Source: an uncultured Actinomycetota bacterium (GTDB lineage Bacteria > Actinomycetota > Humimicrobiia > Humimicrobiales > Humimicrobiaceae). Taken from it: 38,787 bases of DNA. The stretch spans positions 1-38,787 of the forward strand of contig CAYRJH010000005.1 of the NCBI GenBank assembly GCA_964424685.1, written 5' to 3'. Below the pieces are notes generated by a model that saw only the letters and a program-made list of their open reading frames with translations, did not search any database and had not been told where the DNA came from. Position 1 is the stretch's first letter. Every line of letters starts with the position of its first letter. This document shows, piece after piece, positions 1 to 8,297 of this stretch. The position numbers and the translations under genes are program-made.

Positions 1-38
1 ATTGATATTACAAGTAGCCATAAAATTATTTTTTTCAT
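1..38 (-). CDS. Partial CDS: the N-terminal 12 codons (MKKIILWLLVIS...) of an unidentified, probably exported protein that continues past the left window edge
   Basis: A minus-strand ATG at 38-36 is preceded by AAAGGA with a 7-nt spacer. The Lys-rich start followed by a hydrophobic run resembles a signal peptide. The fragment is far too short to identify. Confidence 0.25.
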   Translation of the reverse strand, partial: MKKIILWLLVIS

Positions 39-92
39 TATTATATCCTTTCCTGTTTTACTTTTAAAACAGATTTTAATAAAATTACTCAC

Positions 93-146
93 GAGATTTG
101 TTTACTTTTGGCCAAGTCTCAAGTGCCTAAAAGTTAGACAAATCTC
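93..146 (-). terminator. Long imperfect stem-loop between the end of the LacI-family gene and the next gene; possible intrinsic, perhaps bidirectional, terminator
   Basis: GAGATTTGT (93-101) pairs with ACAAATCTC (138-146). The stem extends inward with a few mismatches (TTACTTTTGG / CCTAAAAGTTA). A T-rich tract follows on the + strand (147-180); the T-run on the - strand is weaker. The structure lies about 50 nt downstream of the regulator stop codon. Confidence 0.3.
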
Positions 147-197
147 CTTTCTTTTAAATTGGTTTCTTTTTTCTTTTTTTACCACCTCCTAAAATCT

Positions 198-1295
198 TTA
201 TTCCAATAATAAGTCAGTCGGTACCTCCTTTCTCCTAACCCCAGAATTACCAATTTTTTTACAGGATTGCCTGATAACCAATTCTGGCCTTAAAATAACT
301 CTTCTTAATTCTTTATCAGACCTATTTTCCAATATCCCTAATAACTGTTCTGCAGCTAACTTACCCAGCAAATACTTAGGCTGCCTAATCGTAGTAAGGG
401 GAATCTTGATCATGGATGAGATCTCAATATTGTCATAACCAATAACAGAAATATCCTCGGGTATTTTAATACCTTTATCGTTAATTTCTTCAATTGACTT
501 AATTGCTAAATAATCATTGCCCGAAAATATTGCCGTAATATTTTCTTGTCTGCTTAATATATAGCTAATTATACCCTCAATATTATATATACCGCCTGTT
601 TTAATAAATTTCGTCGGTACAAAATTATCGGTATTATTAATTTCATAACGTTTAAGTGTATCCATAAATCCCCTGAATCTCTCTCTCAAGCTAAGTAACT
701 TTCTATTTCCAAGAAAAAATATATTCCTATGACCAAGCTTTATAAGATACTCCGTAGCCAACTCTGCCCCATAATAGTCATCATTAACAACATAACTTAC
801 ACCCGGAATATCCAGTTTGCAGTCTATTAATAAAAATGGGATTCCTTTATCCCTGAGATCCTCGATTGTTTTCATTTTTAATTCGACTGTTGTAAGAAGA
901 AAACCATCTACTCCTCTTTCAATAAGTGTTCTTATATCCCTCTCCTCAAGATTTATGTCATTATTGGAGTTGCATAATATTACATTATAATTTTTTGCTT
1001 CTGCTGCATCGATAACTCCTTTAGCAACTCTTGAGTAGAATGGATTCTCTATATCCGCTAAAACCAGGCCAATAGTTCTGGTTTTGTTAGTCCTTAGACT
1101 CTGAGCTATAATGCTTGGCTTATATTCCTCTTTTTTAATAATTTCCGTAACCCTGTCTCTTGTATTCTTACTTACAAAAGCACTATCTGAAAGAACTCTT
1201 GATATCGTTGTCCTTGAGACCCCTGCTAATTCTGCTATCTCTCTGATTGTCATTTTTTTGAAGCTTTTTTTTGATTTTTTTAGCATCGATACCAT
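198..1295 (-). CDS. LacI/GalR-family transcriptional regulator
   Basis: It has an N-terminal HTH (MTIREIAELAGVSRTTISRVLSD) followed by a periplasmic-binding-protein-like sugar-binding core. The true start is probably Met15 (nt 1253), since the first 14 codons (MVSMLKKSKKSFKK) precede the canonical HTH start. Confidence 0.9.
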   Translation of the reverse strand: MVSMLKKSKKSFKKMTIREIAELAGVSRTTISRVLSDSAFVSKNTRDRVTEIIKKEEYKPSIIAQSLRTNKTRTIGLVLADIENPFYSRVAKGVIDAAEAKNYNVILCNSNNDINLEERDIRTLIERGVDGFLLTTVELKMKTIEDLRDKGIPFLLIDCKLDIPGVSYVVNDDYYGAELATEYLIKLGHRNIFFLGNRKLLSLRERFRGFMDTLKRYEINNTDNFVPTKFIKTGGIYNIEGIISYILSRQENITAIFSGNDYLAIKSIEEINDKGIKIPEDISVIGYDNIEISSMIKIPLTTIRQPKYLLGKLAAEQLLGILENRSDKELRRVILRPELVIRQSCKKIGNSGVRRKEVPTDLLLE

Positions 1296-1356
1296 ATATT
1301 TCTTAAAAATATTTGATTTTAACCATTATTTATAGCTTAAATACATTACTATTCTC

Positions 1357-1370
1357 TGTTATCGATTCCA
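1357..1370. promoter_or_regulatory. Candidate LacI-family (cre-like) operator, possibly for autoregulation
   Basis: TGTTATCGATTCCA matches the TGWAANCGNTNWCA-type pseudo-palindrome at about 12 of 14 positions around a central CG. It lies 60-105 nt upstream of the regulator start codons. Confidence 0.25.
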
Positions 1371-1867
1371 ATAAAATATCACATCAAACTTTATATGTCA
1401 ATATCTGGAATAAGAATATTTAAGGATATTAGATCTATGAAAGGTGAGAAAATTTAACCCATTTAAAAAAATAGTTAATGGCACAGTAGACAATAATATC
1501 CATAAGCTCATCTGCTGGATGTATATATCTTTTTTCTAATTTTTATATCGGTAACTATACTAAGTTACTTTTTATTTCCTGATGCGTTTTTTAGAGGTAG
1601 ACATCCTATCGTAAGTAGATTGGAGTTTTCTCCTGCTTTATGGATTTCAACACTTCAGATATTCTGATACAATTTCATTCCAACATCTCTTATTATAGGT
1701 GTGAGTCTTATTGCATATTAATGTAGGATATCAAAGGAAAAGTTTATGCCAATTGGATATATTGCATCCTGGATACTATCACAATAGTTGCTCTTTACTG
1801 TCCTTACCCCATTCTTTATTGCAGTTTTTAAGTTAGTATTAAATGTTTTAATATAGGTCAGCATGCC

Positions 1868-3049
1868 TCAGGGGCGTTTTAATTTAGAACGAGTTGTATT
1901 TACCCAGTATTTGTCTGTTTCATCCCCCCGCAGTTCAAGCGCTTTTTCAAAATAGGGCAGCGCTTCTTCATAGCGGCCCATGTTATATAAAGTATTACCG
2001 ATCCAGTTATAATTTGATATATTTGTTTTATCATCCTGCATCTCAAGCGATTTTTTAAGGTAAGGCAGCGCTTCTTCATGGCGGCCCAATCTGGAGAGAG
2101 TGGTACCGAGCCAGTTGTAGTCTATCCAGCTACCCTGCAGCTTAACCGCTTTTTCAAAATGAGGCAGTGCTTCTTCGTAGCGGCCCATGTTAGAGAGCGC
2201 AGTGCCGAGCCAACTGTAGTCTATCCCATCACCCTTTATTTTAACCGCTTTTTCAAAATAGGTCAGCGCTTCTTCGTGTCTACCCATATTGGTGAGCGTG
2301 GTGCCCAGCCAGCTGTAGTTTGATATATTTGTTTTATCATCCTGCATCTCAAGCGATTTTTTAAGGTAAGACAACGCTTCTTCGTAGCGGCCCAATCTGG
2401 AAAGATCAACACCGAGCCAGTTGTAGTCTATCCAGTTACCCTGCAGCTTTACCGCTTTTTCAAAATAGGGCAATGCTTCTTCGTAGCGGCCCTGGTTAGA
2501 GAGCTCTCTTCCTTTACTGGCGGCATCTTGTCCGGTTAGAGTATCTTTAGCCTTGTCGACGGTACTTTGAAAATTGGTAAAATCACCTGATTCGCGAAGT
2601 AATTTCTTATATTCTTCACTTTCCATATTTTCTTTAGCATCAATTTTTTTATTAATTAATGTCAATATTATTTCAATAAGTTTTTTAATATGATTTTCCA
2701 TCGGTTTCGTAAGAGCATCCTGCCAATGCGTATTTAACAAATAATATTTCATCGCACCTTTAGGCTCGATATCTTCAATTCTGAAAGGAATGACAGTTAC
2801 TTCAGAATTAAATGCAAGAGATATTTCTCTTGATACCTGTCTGGAATTATTTGAGTATGAAGAAAATATAAGAATCAATAGTTTACTTCGGGTAATTGCA
2901 CCTTCAATGGATTCAGCCCAGTCCAGCCCCGGCAGAATATCTCTGGGGGCGATCCAGCACCTTATTTTAGCAGCTTCAAGTGAAGCGCAGACTGCATCTG
3001 CTACTAATTTATCTTTTGTAGAATATGAAATAAATACATCATGAGCCAT
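1868..3049 (-). CDS. TIR domain protein with a C-terminal array of six TPR-like repeats (393 aa)
   Basis: Residues 3-125 carry bacterial TIR_2-type motifs: DVFISYSTKDK, IRCWIAPRDILPG, LILIFSSYSNNSRQVSREISLA (putative catalytic Glu75) and IPFRIEDIEP...HWQDA. Residues ~175-385 hold six repeats of 33/36 aa with the pattern GRYEEALPYFEKAVKLQG-WIDYNWLG. A GAGGA Shine-Dalgarno sits 9 nt upstream of the ATG, and the gene starts 33 bp downstream of the preceding gene. Confidence 0.85.
   Translation of the reverse strand: MAHDVFISYSTKDKLVADAVCASLEAAKIRCWIAPRDILPGLDWAESIEGAITRSKLLILIFSSYSNNSRQVSREISLAFNSEVTVIPFRIEDIEPKGAMKYYLLNTHWQDALTKPMENHIKKLIEIILTLINKKIDAKENMESEEYKKLLRESGDFTNFQSTVDKAKDTLTGQDAASKGRELSNQGRYEEALPYFEKAVKLQGNWIDYNWLGVDLSRLGRYEEALSYLKKSLEMQDDKTNISNYSWLGTTLTNMGRHEEALTYFEKAVKIKGDGIDYSWLGTALSNMGRYEEALPHFEKAVKLQGSWIDYNWLGTTLSRLGRHEEALPYLKKSLEMQDDKTNISNYNWIGNTLYNMGRYEEALPYFEKALELRGDETDKYWVNTTRSKLKRP
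1895..2527 (-). repeat. In-frame tandem coding repeats (TPR-like units), including a 306-bp (3-repeat) duplication of high nucleotide identity
   Basis: The segment from ~2013 is repeated from ~2319, an offset of 306 bp. The first 52 nt are identical and I hand-counted about 17 differences over ~237 nt. A further partial copy lies at ~1895-2010. Confidence 0.8.
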
Positions 3050-3082
3050 AATATATATTCCTCATCTAAATTAAATAATGTA

Positions 3083-5749
3083 TTATCGCTTAATCTCTTT
3101 GTTTAATTTAATCATGGTATACCCGGCTTTTGCAAGAATTTTATTAATGCCTTTTACCAGAGTACGGTCTTTTTCCTTCTCACTTTCAGAAAGCTTTTCC
3201 CAGGATATAAGACATTTATGCAGTTTTGCTGTCTTATCAGTTTTTTTTGCATAATGCCATCCATTATTAAGCTTTTCCTGCACCCATCGCTCATGTTCCA
3301 TCTTTGCCAGTTTGTCGATTTCATCATTTTGAAATTTACCCGGAGTCTCATTACCTCTGGTTTGAACCATTGCATATCCAACACTTGCCAGTTTATTAGG
3401 GATATCACTGACATTATTCCGGTTGTTTTCTTTATTATCTTCAGATAATTCAATATAGGGTTTAAGTAAACTATGTTCTTTTTTGCTATTTTGTGTTACC
3501 GGCCCATACTTATATCCTTTCGCAGTCAAATCTTCACAGAATACATCATGCGCCGCTTCCGCAAGTTTTTCCAGAAGATTTTTATTAAGCTCCATACGAT
3601 GCATTAGGGTATAAAAATCCTGGCCGTCTGCATGCAAATTCAATTGCGCTTCAGAAGGTATGCTTGAAGGCTCAAAGCTTGTCTTGCCTGACAGCTGACT
3701 TATGGAAACAATTGTCTCCATAGAGCGCGCTCCATGCTTATATTGCCTGGTTAATAAAAAGGCACGAAGCACTCCTTCGTCAATGCTTGTAATTCTTTTC
3801 CCTCCATAACTGTGCAGAATCTGGGGTTCGTTGCGGTCAAAGATTGACCGCAGGACAATTGCACGCCGGATGATATAGTAGGGATCTTTTATTTGCCCAT
3901 AGTCGTCTTTATTTTCCTGCCGGTTTGGGCCGAGGATATTTAAAAATCCTTTCAGGCGGCTTATAAAATCAGGTAGTTTTACCGCTCCGCTTTCCCTCTC
4001 GCTAATATTTGTCCCAAATGTTTCCATACTGTGGCTTGTCCCTCCTGCAAATACAAAAATACCCCTGCCTATATGGTGGGTCATTTGCCCTTCCTGGAAT
4101 TTTCCATCTTGCATGGGGGCAAGAAAATACCGCAGCCAGCCCAGAGTTTGATTTTGCAGAGAAGTATCAAATTCATCCCAGAAAACAAGTGATATCTTGC
4201 CAGATAACGCCCTGTCACGTATTTGATGATAGGCATCAAACAAATCCCCGGGTCCTCCAAGCTGTGAAAGATTAAAAGTTATCTCCTCAATTTCCCCCTG
4301 CCGTACCGAACTTGCTACCTGCTTTACTGCGAATGATTTGCCGGAGCCCGGCGGACCAAAGACCGCTATCGATAAAGGCGTTTTCTGATAACTCTCGCAA
4401 TATTCATTAATGAGATTGCTAATATTGTGTAAAGCTTCGATCTCCCTGCGGTCTATTGTCTGGAGTTTGCCAAACTTCCCCATAGGCACTTCAGGTAAAG
4501 CATGTTCCAGACCTTCGCGTACAATCAGCCTTGCTATATTCTCAAGAGAATCAGGACTTTTATCTTCAAGTATTGCCCAGAAACGGTCTGGTTCTTCAGG
4601 AGAAGTTTCGGAAAGTGCCTGTGCAGGATTTTTAATTGGCACAACTGATAAAAAACTGCAATCTTCTTCTAATTTAGCTGCTACCCCGGCTGCCGGGAAA
4701 GCCAGATTTATTTTCTTTGTTTCATTGCTGGCACGGCCATATCCCATTATATGAAGAAATCGCATAGCGCTGATCCCTGATTGAATGCCACGGGACATGT
4801 CTGGTTCCGGGGTATCCAGCATCAGCTCCCGGGCAATACTGCCGGCAAGACACGATGTATAGCCAATCATATATCCTTTATAACGGTTTTCCCATTCACC
4901 TTCCATGGCAGACGGGTCAAAAAAAAGAATGGCATCCGGTGAAGAATCTGTTTTTTTAGAAAGAAGAGCTGCGCCTGCCATATCAAAAGATATGATTATA
5001 TGAGCGCACTGCGTAATCTCATTTATATGAGGGTTATATAGAAGTTCCCACATCAAGTCCTGTGCAGTCCGTTCCCATGATACCTGGCGGCTTATGTGGA
5101 CCTGGCTGCGGCGCAGATCATCAGCTGTTATAATCACTATTAGCCGGTCTGCATGATTTTGTAAAAGATGATCCCACAGTTTACCCTGCACCACTGGCCA
5201 GGCCATTTTAAGGATAATCCAGGGTTTTGAGTTGCCCCTGGAAAGAGATTGGGGCCAGTATTCCTGGGCATCGCGGAACCCAAGAGCAGCATCATCCAGG
5301 ATTACAAGGTCCGGATTTACTGGATCGTCAACAACTTTTTTCCAGCTATCTGACGAAGACATACCATCATATGCCTTGCATAAACCTAAAAATTCCTGAA
5401 CCCGCCATACTTTTTCTCCCTTATTAGATGCATGCACATCTATTTTAAAAGGTGCCCATATAGCATAAGAATGATGGAAGTGGTTGTTACAGGGATTTAT
5501 AGGGCTTCGAGGTGCAGAGATTTGCCTGACTGTAATACTGGTTTGCCCTGTTTGATTTAAGTTTCTGGCAATACTTTTAACAAGGTCAGCCAGCATGGTT
5601 ACACCCCCTATCTGGCAAAATGAGGTGGTTAAGTTCTCTGCATTCCATACGTTCATAATGACATCTGCCCGCCGCACTCTGGCTATATTCCAATCAATAG
5701 TTACATCTCCTGTAACAACTACAGTCTTTGTATTTTTTTTCTTATTCAT
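3083..5749 (-). CDS. Large multidomain ATPase (888 aa): unassigned N-terminal alpha/beta domain (~aa 1-350), AAA+ ATPase (~aa 425-690), two C-terminal RyR-type repeats (~aa 722-795 and 806-880)
   Basis: AAA+ motifs are Walker A AVFGPPGSGKS (aa 462-472, nt ~4334-4366), Walker B LVFWDEFD (aa 521-528), IFVFAGGTS (sensor-1 region) and KHGARSMETIV (sensor-2-like). The RyR repeats read LAEAAHDVFCEDLTAKGYKYGPV..KEHSLLKPYIELSEDNKENNRN...LASVGY and LAKMEHERWVQEKLNNGWHYA...KLHKCLISWEKLSESEKEKDRT...LAKAGY. The N-domain alternates hydrophobic strand-like stretches (VVVTGDVTIDW, LVILDDAALGF, WIILKM, LIVIITADD, HIIISFDMAGAALL, AILFFDP), which is reminiscent of ribokinase/PfkB-like folds. That last point is inference only. 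Confidence 0.8.
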   Translation of the reverse strand: MNKKKNTKTVVVTGDVTIDWNIARVRRADVIMNVWNAENLTTSFCQIGGVTMLADLVKSIARNLNQTGQTSITVRQISAPRSPINPCNNHFHHSYAIWAPFKIDVHASNKGEKVWRVQEFLGLCKAYDGMSSSDSWKKVVDDPVNPDLVILDDAALGFRDAQEYWPQSLSRGNSKPWIILKMAWPVVQGKLWDHLLQNHADRLIVIITADDLRRSQVHISRQVSWERTAQDLMWELLYNPHINEITQCAHIIISFDMAGAALLSKKTDSSPDAILFFDPSAMEGEWENRYKGYMIGYTSCLAGSIARELMLDTPEPDMSRGIQSGISAMRFLHIMGYGRASNETKKINLAFPAAGVAAKLEEDCSFLSVVPIKNPAQALSETSPEEPDRFWAILEDKSPDSLENIARLIVREGLEHALPEVPMGKFGKLQTIDRREIEALHNISNLINEYCESYQKTPLSIAVFGPPGSGKSFAVKQVASSVRQGEIEEITFNLSQLGGPGDLFDAYHQIRDRALSGKISLVFWDEFDTSLQNQTLGWLRYFLAPMQDGKFQEGQMTHHIGRGIFVFAGGTSHSMETFGTNISERESGAVKLPDFISRLKGFLNILGPNRQENKDDYGQIKDPYYIIRRAIVLRSIFDRNEPQILHSYGGKRITSIDEGVLRAFLLTRQYKHGARSMETIVSISQLSGKTSFEPSSIPSEAQLNLHADGQDFYTLMHRMELNKNLLEKLAEAAHDVFCEDLTAKGYKYGPVTQNSKKEHSLLKPYIELSEDNKENNRNNVSDIPNKLASVGYAMVQTRGNETPGKFQNDEIDKLAKMEHERWVQEKLNNGWHYAKKTDKTAKLHKCLISWEKLSESEKEKDRTLVKGINKILAKAGYTMIKLNKEIKR

Positions 5750-5805
5750 TGATAAATACCCCCATACTTATAGTAATATGGTTAAATTTTAATAACATTA
5801 AATCA

Positions 5806-5825
5806 TGCATATTTGCAATATTGCA
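5806..5825. promoter_or_regulatory. Candidate operator upstream of the ATPase/TIR operon: three TGCA cores 8 bp apart, including the perfect 12-bp palindrome TGCAATATTGCA
   Basis: The sequence TGCATATTTGCAATATTGCA lies at 5806-5825, with the palindrome at 5814-5825. It is 57-76 nt upstream of the ATG at 5749, inside the divergent intergenic region. Confidence 0.2.
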
Positions 5826-6057
5826 TCCAGTAGTTCATTATTCTTTTCTGGTTTCTACAGTTTTATTAACATTTCTGGATAATAATATCATATTTATTAT
5901 TTTTCTTTAAAACCTATATTTTTTGGAAAATGTACGCTATGATCTATTATATTATTATTGCCATACATTGTTACCTATAATAAAGCAATAATAAATACCT
6001 GGCTTCTATGTTGGCGGCCAAAAGATTAAATAATGAGGTAAGGACATTATCGCCCCC

Positions 6058-6086
6058 TTGACAATACCTATAACTAATAATACACT
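6058..6086 (+). promoter_or_regulatory. Candidate sigma-70-type promoter for the RRM protein gene
   Basis: TTGACA (6058-6063), a 17-nt spacer, then TACACT (6081-6086). This would give a leader of about 115 nt ending in AGGAGG 6 nt before the ATG at 6207. Confidence 0.3.
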
Positions 6087-6206
6087 TAAACCCTCTATTT
6101 TGTTTAATGATATTTTAATTAAGAGCAGGTCACTACTTTCTATTACCTCTCCAAAAGAAATATTAAGAAGATTATAGGGAAATAATATTTTTTTAAGGAG
6201 GTAAGA

Positions 6207-6473
6207 ATGCAAGGTAGCAAACTATATGTTGGAAATTTCGGATACTCCACAATTGATTCACAATTGGAAAAACTGTTTTCTCCATTTGGACAGATTAAGA
6301 GTGTTACTGTCATAGGAAACAAGGGTTTTGGATTTGTTGAGATGTCAAGCACATCAGAAGCTGAAAAAGCAAAAGAAGCTTTAGATGGTTCAGACTTTGA
6401 AGGACGCACTTTAAGAGTTGACGAAGCTCGTCCGCAAAGCAGCAGGCCAGAAAGAAACTTCAGGAGATATTAA
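6207..6473 (+). CDS. Small RRM (RNP-1) type RNA-binding protein (88 aa)
   Basis: RNP2 motif KLYVGNF and RNP1 motif KGFGFVEM are present, with a typical ...GRTLRVDEARP tail. A strong AGGAGG RBS precedes the start. Confidence 0.9.
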   Translation: MQGSKLYVGNFGYSTIDSQLEKLFSPFGQIKSVTVIGNKGFGFVEMSSTSEAEKAKEALDGSDFEGRTLRVDEARPQSSRPERNFRRY

Positions 6474-6487
6474 ATATAATCAAAACT

Positions 6488-6528
6488 AACTGCATACAGG
6501 TTCTTTAAAAGAACTCTTATGCAGTTTT
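6488..6528 (+). terminator. Stem-loop just after the RRM gene (first of two tandem hairpins)
   Basis: AACTGCATA (6488-6496) pairs with TATGCAGTT (6518-6526). An inner GGTTC/GAACT helix sits within it. It is followed by TTGATTT, a weak U-tract. Confidence 0.4.
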
Positions 6529-6542
6529 GATTTCTCCATATT

Positions 6543-6589
6543 AATGATTTGCTGCTTATACATTAATTTAAACAGCAAATCATTTTTTT
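6543..6589 (+). terminator. Rho-independent terminator (second hairpin)
   Basis: A perfect 12-bp stem forms between AATGATTTGCTG (6543-6554) and CAGCAAATCATT (6573-6584). It runs directly into a T-run through 6589. Confidence 0.6.
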
Positions 6590-6685
6590 AACAAATAATT
6601 AGAAAGTAATTCGATGCCAGGTTCTCTATTGCAATAAAAGGTCGACCTGCTCTATAATTTTACACACACAGGAGGACAAGTTCTT

Positions 6686-7999
6686 ATGAAATTAGAGCTA
6701 ATTGTGCCGGCTACCCGGGAAAACTTAATGAATCGAAAGAAGACACCATGCCAGCATCTTGGCCTGGCTCTGGTTGCAGCCTTAACCCCGCCAGAGGTCG
6801 AAGTCTCTTTAACTGATGAGAATGTCACAACTATTGATTACCAGAAGGAAATAGACTTAGTGGGAATAACAGCAATAACTATTACAGCGAAACGCGCCTA
6901 TGAAATCGCCGATACTTTTAGAGCGAAGGGCGTTAAGGTTATCCTGGGGGGCAGCCACCCCAGTGCTCTGCCTGAAGAGGCAAGCCAGCATGCCGATGCT
7001 GTAGTAATCGGAGAAGCCGAAGGAACCTGGAAAAAAGTAATCGAAGATTTTAAGGCAAACAAACTGCAAAAGATTTACAGCCAGCGCAAGCAGCCCAGCT
7101 TGCTCAACTTACCTTTACCCCGCAGAGACTTATTCTTCAATGGAGCGTACCTTTTCCAGAACACAATCTCAACCACCAGAGGCTGCCCCTATGCTTGCTC
7201 CTTCTGCTCTGTTACTTCATTCTTCGGCCATACTTATCGTTGCCGCCCGATAGAGGAGATCCTCAAGGAGATAGAAACATTGGATCGCAAAAAAATCATC
7301 GTTTTCGTTGATGATAATATCGTCGGTAACACCAGGTTCGCTAAAGAGCTTTTCCGCGCCCTTATACCTTACAGAATCAAGTGGATTGCCCAGGCCTCAA
7401 TAACCGTAGCAAGAGATGACGATTTACTAAAACTCGCAGCAGCCAGCGGTTGCATTTTCCTGCTTATTGGTTTTGAGACAATTAACCCCGGCAATCTTGT
7501 AGCACTTGGTAAGAAATTGAATAAGGTGAACGAATATGAAATGGTGATTAAAAAGATCCACTCTTATGGTATTGCTATCCATGGTTTCTTTGTTCTTGGT
7601 TTAGACGAAGACGATGAAGATGTTTTCGAACGAACTATCCATTTTGTCAATAAAACACGAATGGATAGCGCTCAATTTGCCTGGCTCGTGCCGTATCCAG
7701 GAACCGCTTTATTCGAATCTTTGAATAATGCAGGACGGATAATAACCAAAGACTGGTCGCAATATGAATCTAATGTTGTATTCGATCCAAAGCTAATGAC
7801 TCGGGAGATTCTGCAAAAAGGGCGTGACCGAGTCTGGCGCGAAGTATACAGCCTACCCTCTATTTTGAGGAGGTGGAGATTTATGCACCGCCATCCGCTT
7901 TCATTCTGGGTGGTGAATCTTTATTACCGCTCTTTCTGGCTGAGAAAATTCAGAACCAATAGAGCCGGCAAAAAGTCCGAATCTCCAGTTTGCTTCTAA
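6686..7999 (+). CDS. B12-binding-domain radical SAM protein (class B rSAM, substrate unknown)
   Basis: The N-terminal domain is cobalamin-binding-like (LVGITAITITAKRAYEIAD..GVKVILGGSHPS). The radical SAM cluster motif is RGCPYACSFCSV (CxxxCxxC). An AGGAGG RBS precedes the start. Confidence 0.88.
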   Translation: MKLELIVPATRENLMNRKKTPCQHLGLALVAALTPPEVEVSLTDENVTTIDYQKEIDLVGITAITITAKRAYEIADTFRAKGVKVILGGSHPSALPEEASQHADAVVIGEAEGTWKKVIEDFKANKLQKIYSQRKQPSLLNLPLPRRDLFFNGAYLFQNTISTTRGCPYACSFCSVTSFFGHTYRCRPIEEILKEIETLDRKKIIVFVDDNIVGNTRFAKELFRALIPYRIKWIAQASITVARDDDLLKLAAASGCIFLLIGFETINPGNLVALGKKLNKVNEYEMVIKKIHSYGIAIHGFFVLGLDEDDEDVFERTIHFVNKTRMDSAQFAWLVPYPGTALFESLNNAGRIITKDWSQYESNVVFDPKLMTREILQKGRDRVWREVYSLPSILRRWRFMHRHPLSFWVVNLYYRSFWLRKFRTNRAGKKSESPVCF

Positions 8000-8297
8000 A
8001 TTTATTAAAGTTCTGCTTATTAAGCCAGCCTAAAAACAGGGTAAAATCTTTTAAAGTTTGCATAAGTTAAATTATATTGCCCGCTATTGCCACTGCCGTC
8101 TGTTTATTTTAAAAATTTTTTTTATAAAAGAAATAGAAAATTACAGGCAAATAACCGTTTAATACTTATGAATTTTAGAAGCAAATCCTTATGAATTAAA
8201 AATAATTGCTATTACTATTTTTAAAAAAATAGTAAAGTCTTATTATAAATATATTAAAATATTACAAATTTTATATTTTTTACAGAAAGGATGAGTT

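Follow-up and report, generated by a model that had tools for sequence, protein, structure and literature searches.

The window analysed here comprises 38,787 nucleotides (nt) of contig CAYRJH010000005.1 (assembly GCA_964424685.1) from an uncultured Actinomycetota bacterium, and the gene in question is an intact, ATG-initiated open reading frame (ORF) at 3083..5749 on its minus strand, delimited by the ORF listing and by homologues. Its product of 888 amino acids (aa), which together with its family is labelled MAIN below, combines a ribokinase/PfkB-fold domain, an AAA+ ATPase and tandem RyR repeats. This three-domain make-up is confirmed, and the domain results are not put down to chance. On the same strand, a gene at 1868..3049 encodes a 393-aa TIR-TPR protein according to ORF calling and Pfam, and is separated from MAIN by a 33-nt spacer in which a GAGG ribosome-binding site can be read (3050..3082, minus strand), an arrangement that looks like an operon. 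MAIN is tentatively read as an ATPase that receives the signal in a TIR-based nucleotide-signalling conflict system, which would most likely act against phages. A TIR-made signal derived from ADP-ribose (ADPR) would be received by the RyR repeats and would gate the ATPase; confidence in this reading falls slightly short of even.

The original prediction of an 888-aa ORF with C-terminal tandem RyR repeats is borne out by Pfam, by sequence profiles and by structure comparison alike. Pfam family PF02026 (RyR) matches MAIN in two stretches with an E-value of 2.4e-27 (95.5 bits against a cutoff of 27.4 bits). A profile built from an alignment of 32 full-length homologues and searched against PDB sequences finds the R12 and R34 repeat pairs of RyR1, RyR2 and RyR3 over aa 717-884, with E-values down to 9e-25, and the same span also matches Bacteroides crystal structures annotated as "putative ryanodine receptor". 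In Foldseek, the full-length model of MAIN matches 6uhi with an E-value of 4.9e-10 and a target-normalised template modelling (TM) score of 0.65; RyR3 R12 structures with ATP, ADP and dantrolene are found as well, 6uhh and 9l9b being among the matches. According to the PDB profile search, in which the R12/R34 match spans aa 727-884, and to Foldseek, the two repeats match as one R12-like globular unit. Repeat 1 occupies aa 717-800 (3350..3601, minus strand), as delimited by Pfam and PDB profile matches and an alignment to the phage protein RyDEP, and repeat 2 occupies aa 801-884 (3098..3349, minus strand), as delimited by the RyDEP alignment and conservation.

The original prediction had also regarded the bacterial RyR domain as having no established function, a view that is outdated, since phage PF02026 proteins act on Thoeris signals by binding or cleaving the cyclic ADPR isomers 2'/3'cADPR (Lopez Rivera et al., bioRxiv May 2026 preprint, PMC13232231). 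RyDEP itself (DyoEdafos gp78, 138 aa) is a glycosidase that cleaves 2'/3'cADPR; 6 of the 8 phage PF02026 proteins tested bound 2'/3'cADPR, 2 of them being characterised further with nanomolar dissociation constants, and most other phage homologues tested showed binding without cleavage (PMC13232231). In the RyDEP structure, H75 and D117 touch the terminal ribose, W78 stacks on the adenine, and H100 holds the phosphates, and these ligand-contacting residues are reported to be conserved across PF02026, including animal R12 (PMC13232231). Animal R12 binds ADP and AMP-PCP in a cleft (PMC12627627), and R12 of RyR1 and RyR3, which binds ADP and ATP analogues, has been termed an ADP sensor (PMC13642953, PMC12627627).

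An alignment of the RyDEP sequence (gp78 of MN234187.1) with MAIN pairs residues H75, W78, H100, and D117 with H819, W822, H844, and D861 in repeat 2. The spacing is identical (3/22/17), and the four positions of MAIN are conserved in 105, 101, 87, and 102 of 106 family members, respectively. In repeat 1, the tetrad aligns with H734, F737, H759, and N776 (106, 79 with a further 21 Tyr, 84, and 104 of 106 members), which is a degenerate version. Given the retained RyDEP tetrad and the binding of ADP and AMP-PCP by animal R12 in the corresponding cleft, the C-terminal domain is best read as a predicted adenine/ADPR-type nucleotide pocket with one complete and one degenerate site.

Thus, MAIN and the viral PF02026 proteins share the Pfam family and the H/W/H/D tetrad with its spacing, and MAIN also shares with RyDEP a two-pocket, two-fold architecture, the homodimer of RyDEP corresponding to the tandem repeats of MAIN. 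RyDEP, however, is a viral, single-domain, anti-defence protein that cleaves cADPR isomers (its viral homologues sequester them), whereas MAIN is cellular and multidomain, its repeats are covalently joined with one of them degenerate (F737 and N776), and its predicted role is host-side reception, not evasion. As for animal R12, the tandem RyR repeats are in common (profile E-value of about 1e-24, Foldseek target-normalised TM scores of 0.55-0.65). They sit on a soluble ATPase in MAIN, whereas in animals R12 forms a peripheral, regulatory part of a channel of approximately 5,000 aa. MAIN has no channel domain, and separate proteins combining transmembrane helices, TrkA_N and RyR occur in related loci.

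Regarding the N-terminal part, an AlphaFold2 model of aa 1-440, computed from a 20-sequence alignment, has a predicted local distance difference test (pLDDT) value of 80.9 and a predicted TM score of 0.80. Ribokinase/PfkB kinases make up all 50 of the 50 best Foldseek matches of this model in PDB, with E-values from 1.7e-9 to 2e-7, probability 1.00, target-normalised TM scores of 0.45-0.59, and sequence identity of 7-13%; HldA, LacC, PfkB-2, RbsK, pseudouridine kinase, and ketohexokinase are among them. The Foldseek matches give the domain the ribokinase-like alpha/beta fold with its beta-sheet lid, and together with the model and conservation place it at aa ~6-375 (4625..5734, minus strand). 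It is followed by a linker and helical region of low confidence at aa 376-440 (4430..4624, minus strand; pLDDT below 50 at aa 377-400 and 420-442), which leads to the ATPase. Searches of aa 1-440 with Pfam (including PF00294), NCBIfam, and PDB sequence profiles gave no match, and hhalign against Escherichia coli RbsK found nothing (probability 0.1). The modelled relation to PfkB kinases is therefore visible at the fold level only and by no sequence method used, and it is at this level that the tentative guess of a PfkB-like N-domain holds.

Near-invariant residues of the N-domain include G14, D15, T17, D19, W20, G48, G49, D153, R159, D211, L212, and R213, as well as S224, W225, E226, E283, W286, G292, and G296, with D19, G48, D211, R213, and G296 being essentially invariant in the 106 members. 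The kinase motifs were assigned by a register inferred from the order of secondary structure elements in the AlphaFold2 model and the E. coli RbsK sequence, with no superposition of coordinates. By this register, the first strand 'VVVTG14-D-V-T-I-D19-W' corresponds to RbsK 'VVLG11-S-I-N14-A-D16-H', and 'QxG48G49' corresponds to the Gly-Gly hinge G41 G42. The NXXE site of RbsK ('IIT-P-N187-E-T-E190') falls on 'IIT208-A-[N/D]210-D211-L-R213', and the GXGD site ('A-G254-D255-T-F-N') on 'I-G296-Y297-T-S-C', which lies within the motif GYMIGYTSCLAGSIA at aa 292-306. Position 297 is Y in 83 of the 106 members, followed by N (5), K (5), H (4), and F (2). Thus, R213, which is invariant, apparently takes the place of the NXXE Glu, and Y297 that of the catalytic Asp of GXGD, while D19, the ribose-binding Asp, and the Gly-Gly hinge appear to survive.

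Because the NXXE Glu and the catalytic Asp are apparently lost and the ribose-binding Asp and hinge kept, the N-domain is probably a ligand-binding pseudokinase rather than a phosphotransferase, which agrees with the earlier suggestion of a small-molecule sensor. In comparison with RbsK, PfkB, LacC, and HldA, the fold is shared, and with RbsK also the G-x-x-x-x-D ribose-binding strand (G14...D19 against G11...D16), the hinge, and the 'IIT-x-N' strand. MAIN differs from these kinases in having no PF00294 match, in the two apparent replacements (R213 and Y297), and in the fusion of the domain to an AAA+ ATPase.

The conserved pocket residues and the ribose-binding Asp also bear on a different role, in which MAIN would be a host signal terminator or regulator. 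Repeat 2 would then act as a RyDEP-like inverting glycosidase converting TIR-made 2'/3'cADPR to ADPR, the ribokinase fold would bind or process the ribose product, and the ATPase would couple this to the oligomeric state; TIR signalling would be reset or buffered, much as ring nucleases do for type III CRISPR signalling. In favour of this role, H819/D861, which align with the catalytic dyad H75/D117 of RyDEP, are kept in nearly all members, and the N-domain has an invariant GG motif and an invariant D19, the equivalent of the ribose-binding Asp. RyDEP, moreover, lies in an NAD+-salvage operon of phage DyoEdafos, where ADPR release is tied to ribose/nucleotide metabolism. However, the contact residues are conserved across PF02026 including animal R12, yet most other phage homologues bind without cleaving (PMC13232231), and the H/D dyad is for this reason no marker of catalysis. 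Repeat 1 has Asn where the catalytic acid would be, and an 888-aa ATPase would be an elaborate housing for a simple hydrolase. A terminator role for MAIN is accordingly rated unlikely.

The ATPase module occupies aa ~441-716 (3602..4429, minus strand), as delimited by PF00004, weak PDB profile matches, and conserved motifs. PF00004 scores 25.3 bits against a cutoff of 21.2 bits, in a partial match over profile positions 3-73 of 131. Walker A, GPPGSGKS, can be read directly at aa 465-472 (4334..4357, minus strand), and Walker B, LVFWDEFD, lies at aa 521-528 (4166..4189, minus strand; DEFD at aa 525-528) according to sequence and conservation. G465, G468, G470, and K471 of the former and W524, D525, E526, F527, and D528 of the latter are present in 106/106 members, as are the candidate Arg finger R598 and the candidate sensor-2 R675, followed by the candidate sensor-1 T571 with 103/106. 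In the PDB profile search, Rpt1, Vps4, Cdc48, and Mpa are matched with E-values of 0.005-0.1, confined to the stretch from Walker A to Walker B. Past Walker B lies a region with a conserved insert peculiar to the family, LGWLRYFLAPMQDG, and with a model of low confidence; the AlphaFold2 model has a pLDDT of ~33-60 over aa 534-620, and the AAA+ region gave no strong structural match.

The assignment to AAA+ is accepted on these motifs, the module being divergent. Of the single classical AAA+ core claimed by the original prediction, GPPGSGKS and DEFD thus stand, whereas the "classical" clade is weakly supported, with PDB E-values of 0.005 and above, and unproven. Like classical AAA ATPases (Rpt1, Vps4, Cdc48/p97, Mpa), which are its best PDB sequence matches, MAIN has Walker A GPPGxGKS, Walker B hhhhDE, and a PF00004 score above the gathering cutoff; unlike them, it is similar between Walker A and Walker B only and carries the insert. 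Housekeeping families considered with NCBIfam were rejected, as the only two matches there were far below their cutoffs, pup_AAA with 18.7 bits against 504.75 and the orc1/cdc6 model TIGR02928 with 11.7 bits against 181.3. Neither of the outcomes named beforehand as unfavourable occurred, namely a lack of RyR-repeat or Rossmann/PfkB-like similarity, or membership of the whole protein in a well-characterised housekeeping ATPase family.

In the partner protein, Pfam reports TIR_2 with an E-value of 1.7e-21, followed by six TPRs. The TIR domain spans aa 1-135 (2645..3049, minus strand), and its E75 aligns with the catalytic Glu of PdTIR (3H16); the TPR array spans aa ~170-385 (1895..2542, minus strand). 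The DNA of the array contains a 99-bp tandem repeat at 2035-2504 (4.7 copies, 68% match, Tandem Repeats Finder), which suggests that the repeats of this putative sensor part have recently expanded or diversified. PADLOC gives the protein a weak ThsB match (E-value of 0.022).

The cassette as a whole (1837-5826) is 93% identical at the nucleotide level to a segment of a contig from a metagenome-assembled genome (L001:4519-8510), and the flanks of the two differ by indels. In the latter contig, an additional 3.9 kb with genes for a xylose-isomerase-like TIM barrel protein and an FGGY kinase separates MAIN from the radical SAM gene, and the place of LacI in the window is taken by an MFS transporter gene. 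The GC content is 0.38-0.445 at window positions 2001-5000, which lie within the cassette, against ~0.36 for the window overall. Two fairly long intergenic stretches, 1296-1867 and 5750-6206, bracket the cassette. An Rfam search of window positions 1-8000, including both stretches, gave no match, and promoter-like and terminator-like sites in them are as frequent as expected by chance.

The genes around MAIN in other genomes were compared in a sample of 80 loci, in which ORFs were called, clustered, and searched with local hidden Markov models (HMMs); the counts refer to the 78 species-level loci in which MAIN is complete. Of these, 57 (73%) have one or more of four partner types within three ORFs of MAIN, namely c1dom in 32, TIR in 26 (33%), DUF4062-STAND in 22, and TrkA_N-RyR in 15. 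The link to the TIR-TPR neighbour implied by the original prediction is thus upheld by comparative genomics. All 36 of the 36 aligned TIR domains neighbouring MAIN homologues have the catalytic Glu. A six-frame HMM scan of the window gave no c1dom, DUF4062, or extra RyR gene, and the system there consists of two co-oriented genes only, MAIN and TIR-TPR.

The c1dom is a domain of ~190 aa with the motifs 'GVTGHR', 'AEGADR', and 'WDG..GGT' and no Pfam assignment; a stand-alone example is L017:4670-5257. It has no significant match in PDB, and in Pfam only the SLOG families YAcAr, DprA, and YpsA appear, all below threshold, which makes it tentatively SLOG-like. In 24 of 73 loci its gene directly follows MAIN in the same orientation and is translationally coupled to it, with gaps mostly from -4 to 21 nt, and the domain is fused to the C-terminus of MAIN in two proteins (L054:5977-9195, aa 885-1072, and L060:3288-6635, aa 927-1108). 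In another locus (L084), a MAIN variant without RyR repeats is followed after 5 nt by an RyR-RyR-c1dom fusion (L084:2416-3627), and in a 590-aa protein c1dom is joined to a membrane region with a weak SLATT_3 Pfam match. Because of these fusions and fissions, the PfkB-fold/AAA+ core, the RyR repeats, and c1dom appear to be tied into one functional unit.

As for the remaining partners, Pfam confirms the TrkA_N plus RyR and DUF4062 plus NACHT make-up. TrkA_N-RyR proteins have ~600 aa, with N-terminal transmembrane helices, TrkA_N (E-value of 2.6e-16), and a C-terminal RyR domain (E-value of 1.5e-12), and their genes recur two genes downstream of MAIN homologues (e.g., L009:2038-3825, minus strand; also in L011, L016, L024, L033, L038, L045, L048, L077, and others). 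They look like ion-channel-type proteins regulated by the RyR domain, a prokaryotic echo of ryanodine-receptor logic. DUF4062-NACHT-WD40/TPR STAND giants of 1,000-1,700 aa flank MAIN, sometimes on both sides (L022, L013, L018, L032, L075, and others).

These neighbours also bear on a reversed direction of signalling. MAIN would in that case be the sensor of adenine nucleotides or nucleosides, e.g., ADP/ATP, and its AAA+ motor would remodel or assemble TIR-TPR into an NAD+-depleting effector. Such a role is in line with the invariant ATPase motifs, with the binding of ADP and ATP analogues by R12 of RyR1 and RyR3 (PMC13642953, PMC12627627), and with TPR arrays being typical platforms for protein-protein interaction; many of the neighbouring TIR proteins, furthermore, are STAND/repeat fusions resembling effector-type TIRs. 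It does not, however, explain the tight coupling and the fusions with the SLOG-like domain, nor the co-occurring TrkA_N-RyR and SLATT-like membrane proteins, which have the look of receivers or effectors, and the exact cADPR-contacting tetrad favours an ADPR-type ligand. MAIN as the upstream sensor is thus judged improbable.

Homologues of MAIN form more than 1,691 clusters at 90% identity. The best 120 are all full-length (~870-900 aa) and 52-99% identical, and those that bear a name are annotated as "hypothetical", "ATPase", or "RyR domain-containing". Searching with an N-domain profile yields 2,219 representatives at 50% identity, 908 of them with E-values below 1e-30. At least 493 species, counted with one genome per species, carry the family, in phyla that include Chloroflexota, Acidobacteriota, Planctomycetota, Chlorobi, Actinomycetota, Gemmatimonadota, Bacillota, Ignavibacteriota, and Cloacimonadota, and in archaea including Methanomicrobia. 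Thus, the architecture that the original prediction called unusual is a real three-part combination, but not a one-off, as it belongs to a very large conserved family. Identity across phyla is 42-60% and the distribution is patchy; such a patchy spread at high identity, together with the cellular home of the family, is in keeping with accessory systems that spread horizontally.

Some complete variants, 728-736 aa long, consist of the PfkB-fold and AAA+ parts without RyR repeats (P0232/L083, P0142/L084, P0259/L085, and P0180/L088). The gene next to the L085 variant encodes an AAA_33 plus luciferase-like protein, and the neighbour of the L088 variant is a PAS-GGDEF-EAL protein. Among the 2.9 million contigs of the IMG/VR viral collection there is one real relative of MAIN (L089:4287-7181), which has 964 aa, an N-terminal extension, and no RyR repeats, and sits on a 117-kb contig that is either a virus or a prophage/host fragment. 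When 50,697 phage records were searched by tblastn with repeat 2, two matches came up, both weak and unannotated. A viral origin or anti-defence role was rejected as the principal explanation, the single real relative in viral contigs being without RyR.

The wide distribution has its bearing on a housekeeping or metabolic role as well, in which MAIN would be a regulatory ATPase, e.g., a sensor of nucleotides or energy state, with no part in biological conflict, and its TIR-TPR neighbour incidental. The flanking genes of the window are ordinary (LacI regulator, RRM protein, radical SAM enzyme, SPFH protein, and malic enzyme), the conservation across phyla is high, and 21 of the 78 loci have no recognised partner. 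The distribution over bacterial phyla and archaea is, however, patchy, and NCBIfam has no equivalog for the family; TIR genes and, more broadly, conflict-type partners within three ORFs are as frequent as given above (33% and 73% of loci), gene fusions with c1dom exist, and the cassette sits at a variable genomic spot relative to its 93%-identical counterpart. A housekeeping role is therefore regarded as very unlikely.

Under the preferred reading of MAIN as a receiver of TIR signals, a trigger would be sensed by the TPR array of the partner, whose TIR domain, with its catalytic Glu E75 retained, would use NAD+ to make an ADPR-derived signal, for example a cADPR isomer. This signal would be bound by MAIN at its R12-like tandem RyR repeats, chiefly in the repeat-2 pocket H819/W822/H844/D861, and ligand binding would gate the AAA+ ATPase, presumably as an oligomer. 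The ribokinase-fold N-domain may provide a second ribose/nucleoside-binding site or an output module. In larger versions of the system, c1dom proteins (with or without the SLATT-like membrane part) and TrkA_N-RyR membrane proteins would be likely further receivers or effectors. Domain identities, motif conservation, gene linkage, and gene fusions are observed; the ligand, the direction of signalling, and the output are inferred. The support counted for this reading consists of the architecture, the RyR pocket alignment, the gene linkage and fusions, the TIR Glu, the invariant ATPase motifs, the cellular nature of the family, and the 93%-identical cassette beside divergent flanks.

Several points weigh against it. 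Conservation of the RyDEP tetrad separates neither binding from cleavage nor cADPR from ATP/ADP. The mapping of the kinase motifs is built on register rather than structural superposition, with a negative hhalign result against RbsK, and the AAA+ region is modelled poorly. The two-gene form has no nameable effector activity, the remaining genes of the window look like housekeeping genes rather than a defence island, and none of the four partner domains is present in 21 of the 78 loci. STAND or repeat fusions are frequent among the TIR and DUF4062 proteins next to MAIN, and in such fusions of other systems TIR acts as an NAD+-depleting effector, not as a signal generator (Yirmiya et al. 2025). 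Finally, no characterised member of the MAIN family was found, all function being inferred, and PADLOC has no model for MAIN.

Among known systems, MAIN would by analogy work most like a Thoeris-type effector or receiver. Both in Thoeris (ThsB with ThsA or other effectors) and here, a gene for a TIR protein with the catalytic Glu lies beside a gene with a nucleotide-binding domain, and the SLOG-like, SLATT-like, and ion-channel-like partners in MAIN-related loci resemble the Thoeris effectors predicted by Yirmiya et al. (2025). In contrast, none of the described Thoeris types uses an RyR domain, an AAA+ ATPase, or a PfkB-fold domain, the TIR of the MAIN locus is fused to TPRs, and MAIN is not recognised by PADLOC. 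The MAIN family is not mentioned by Yirmiya et al. (2025), and the literature searched on the RyR domain with TIR, SLOG, AAA+, ribokinase, or phage holds no cellular RyR-domain system apart from the RyDEP preprint. What is new would be the receptor and effector architecture within a nucleotide-signalling system linked to TIR.

Bacteria, plants, and animals use TIR-derived nucleotides as immune signals, for which SLOG, Macro, and a few other domains are the receivers known in bacteria; R12 of human RyR is a dantrolene and ADP site. A broader proposal is that R12-type RyR repeats are native prokaryotic receptors of TIR-generated cADPR-type signals within a widespread undescribed multi-component immune system (PfkB-fold/AAA+/RyR ATPase, SLOG-like protein, and transmembrane TrkA_N-RyR channel-like proteins), that the animal cADPR-ryanodine-receptor axis is derived from a prokaryotic immune module, and that the ATPase is a new class of ligand-gated effector; this proposal is doubtful. 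The RyDEP preprint left open whether cellular RyR-type domains meet TIR signals (PMC13232231), and the MAIN family, if the proposal is true, would be the host-side counterpart to that phage finding. TIR immunity would thereby gain both a new receptor domain and a new ATPase-type effector, and the RyR-domain decoys carried by phages would find an explanation. The family would also offer a tractable soluble model of R12 nucleotide binding, and the long-debated link between cADPR and ryanodine receptors would become testable from its evolutionary root.

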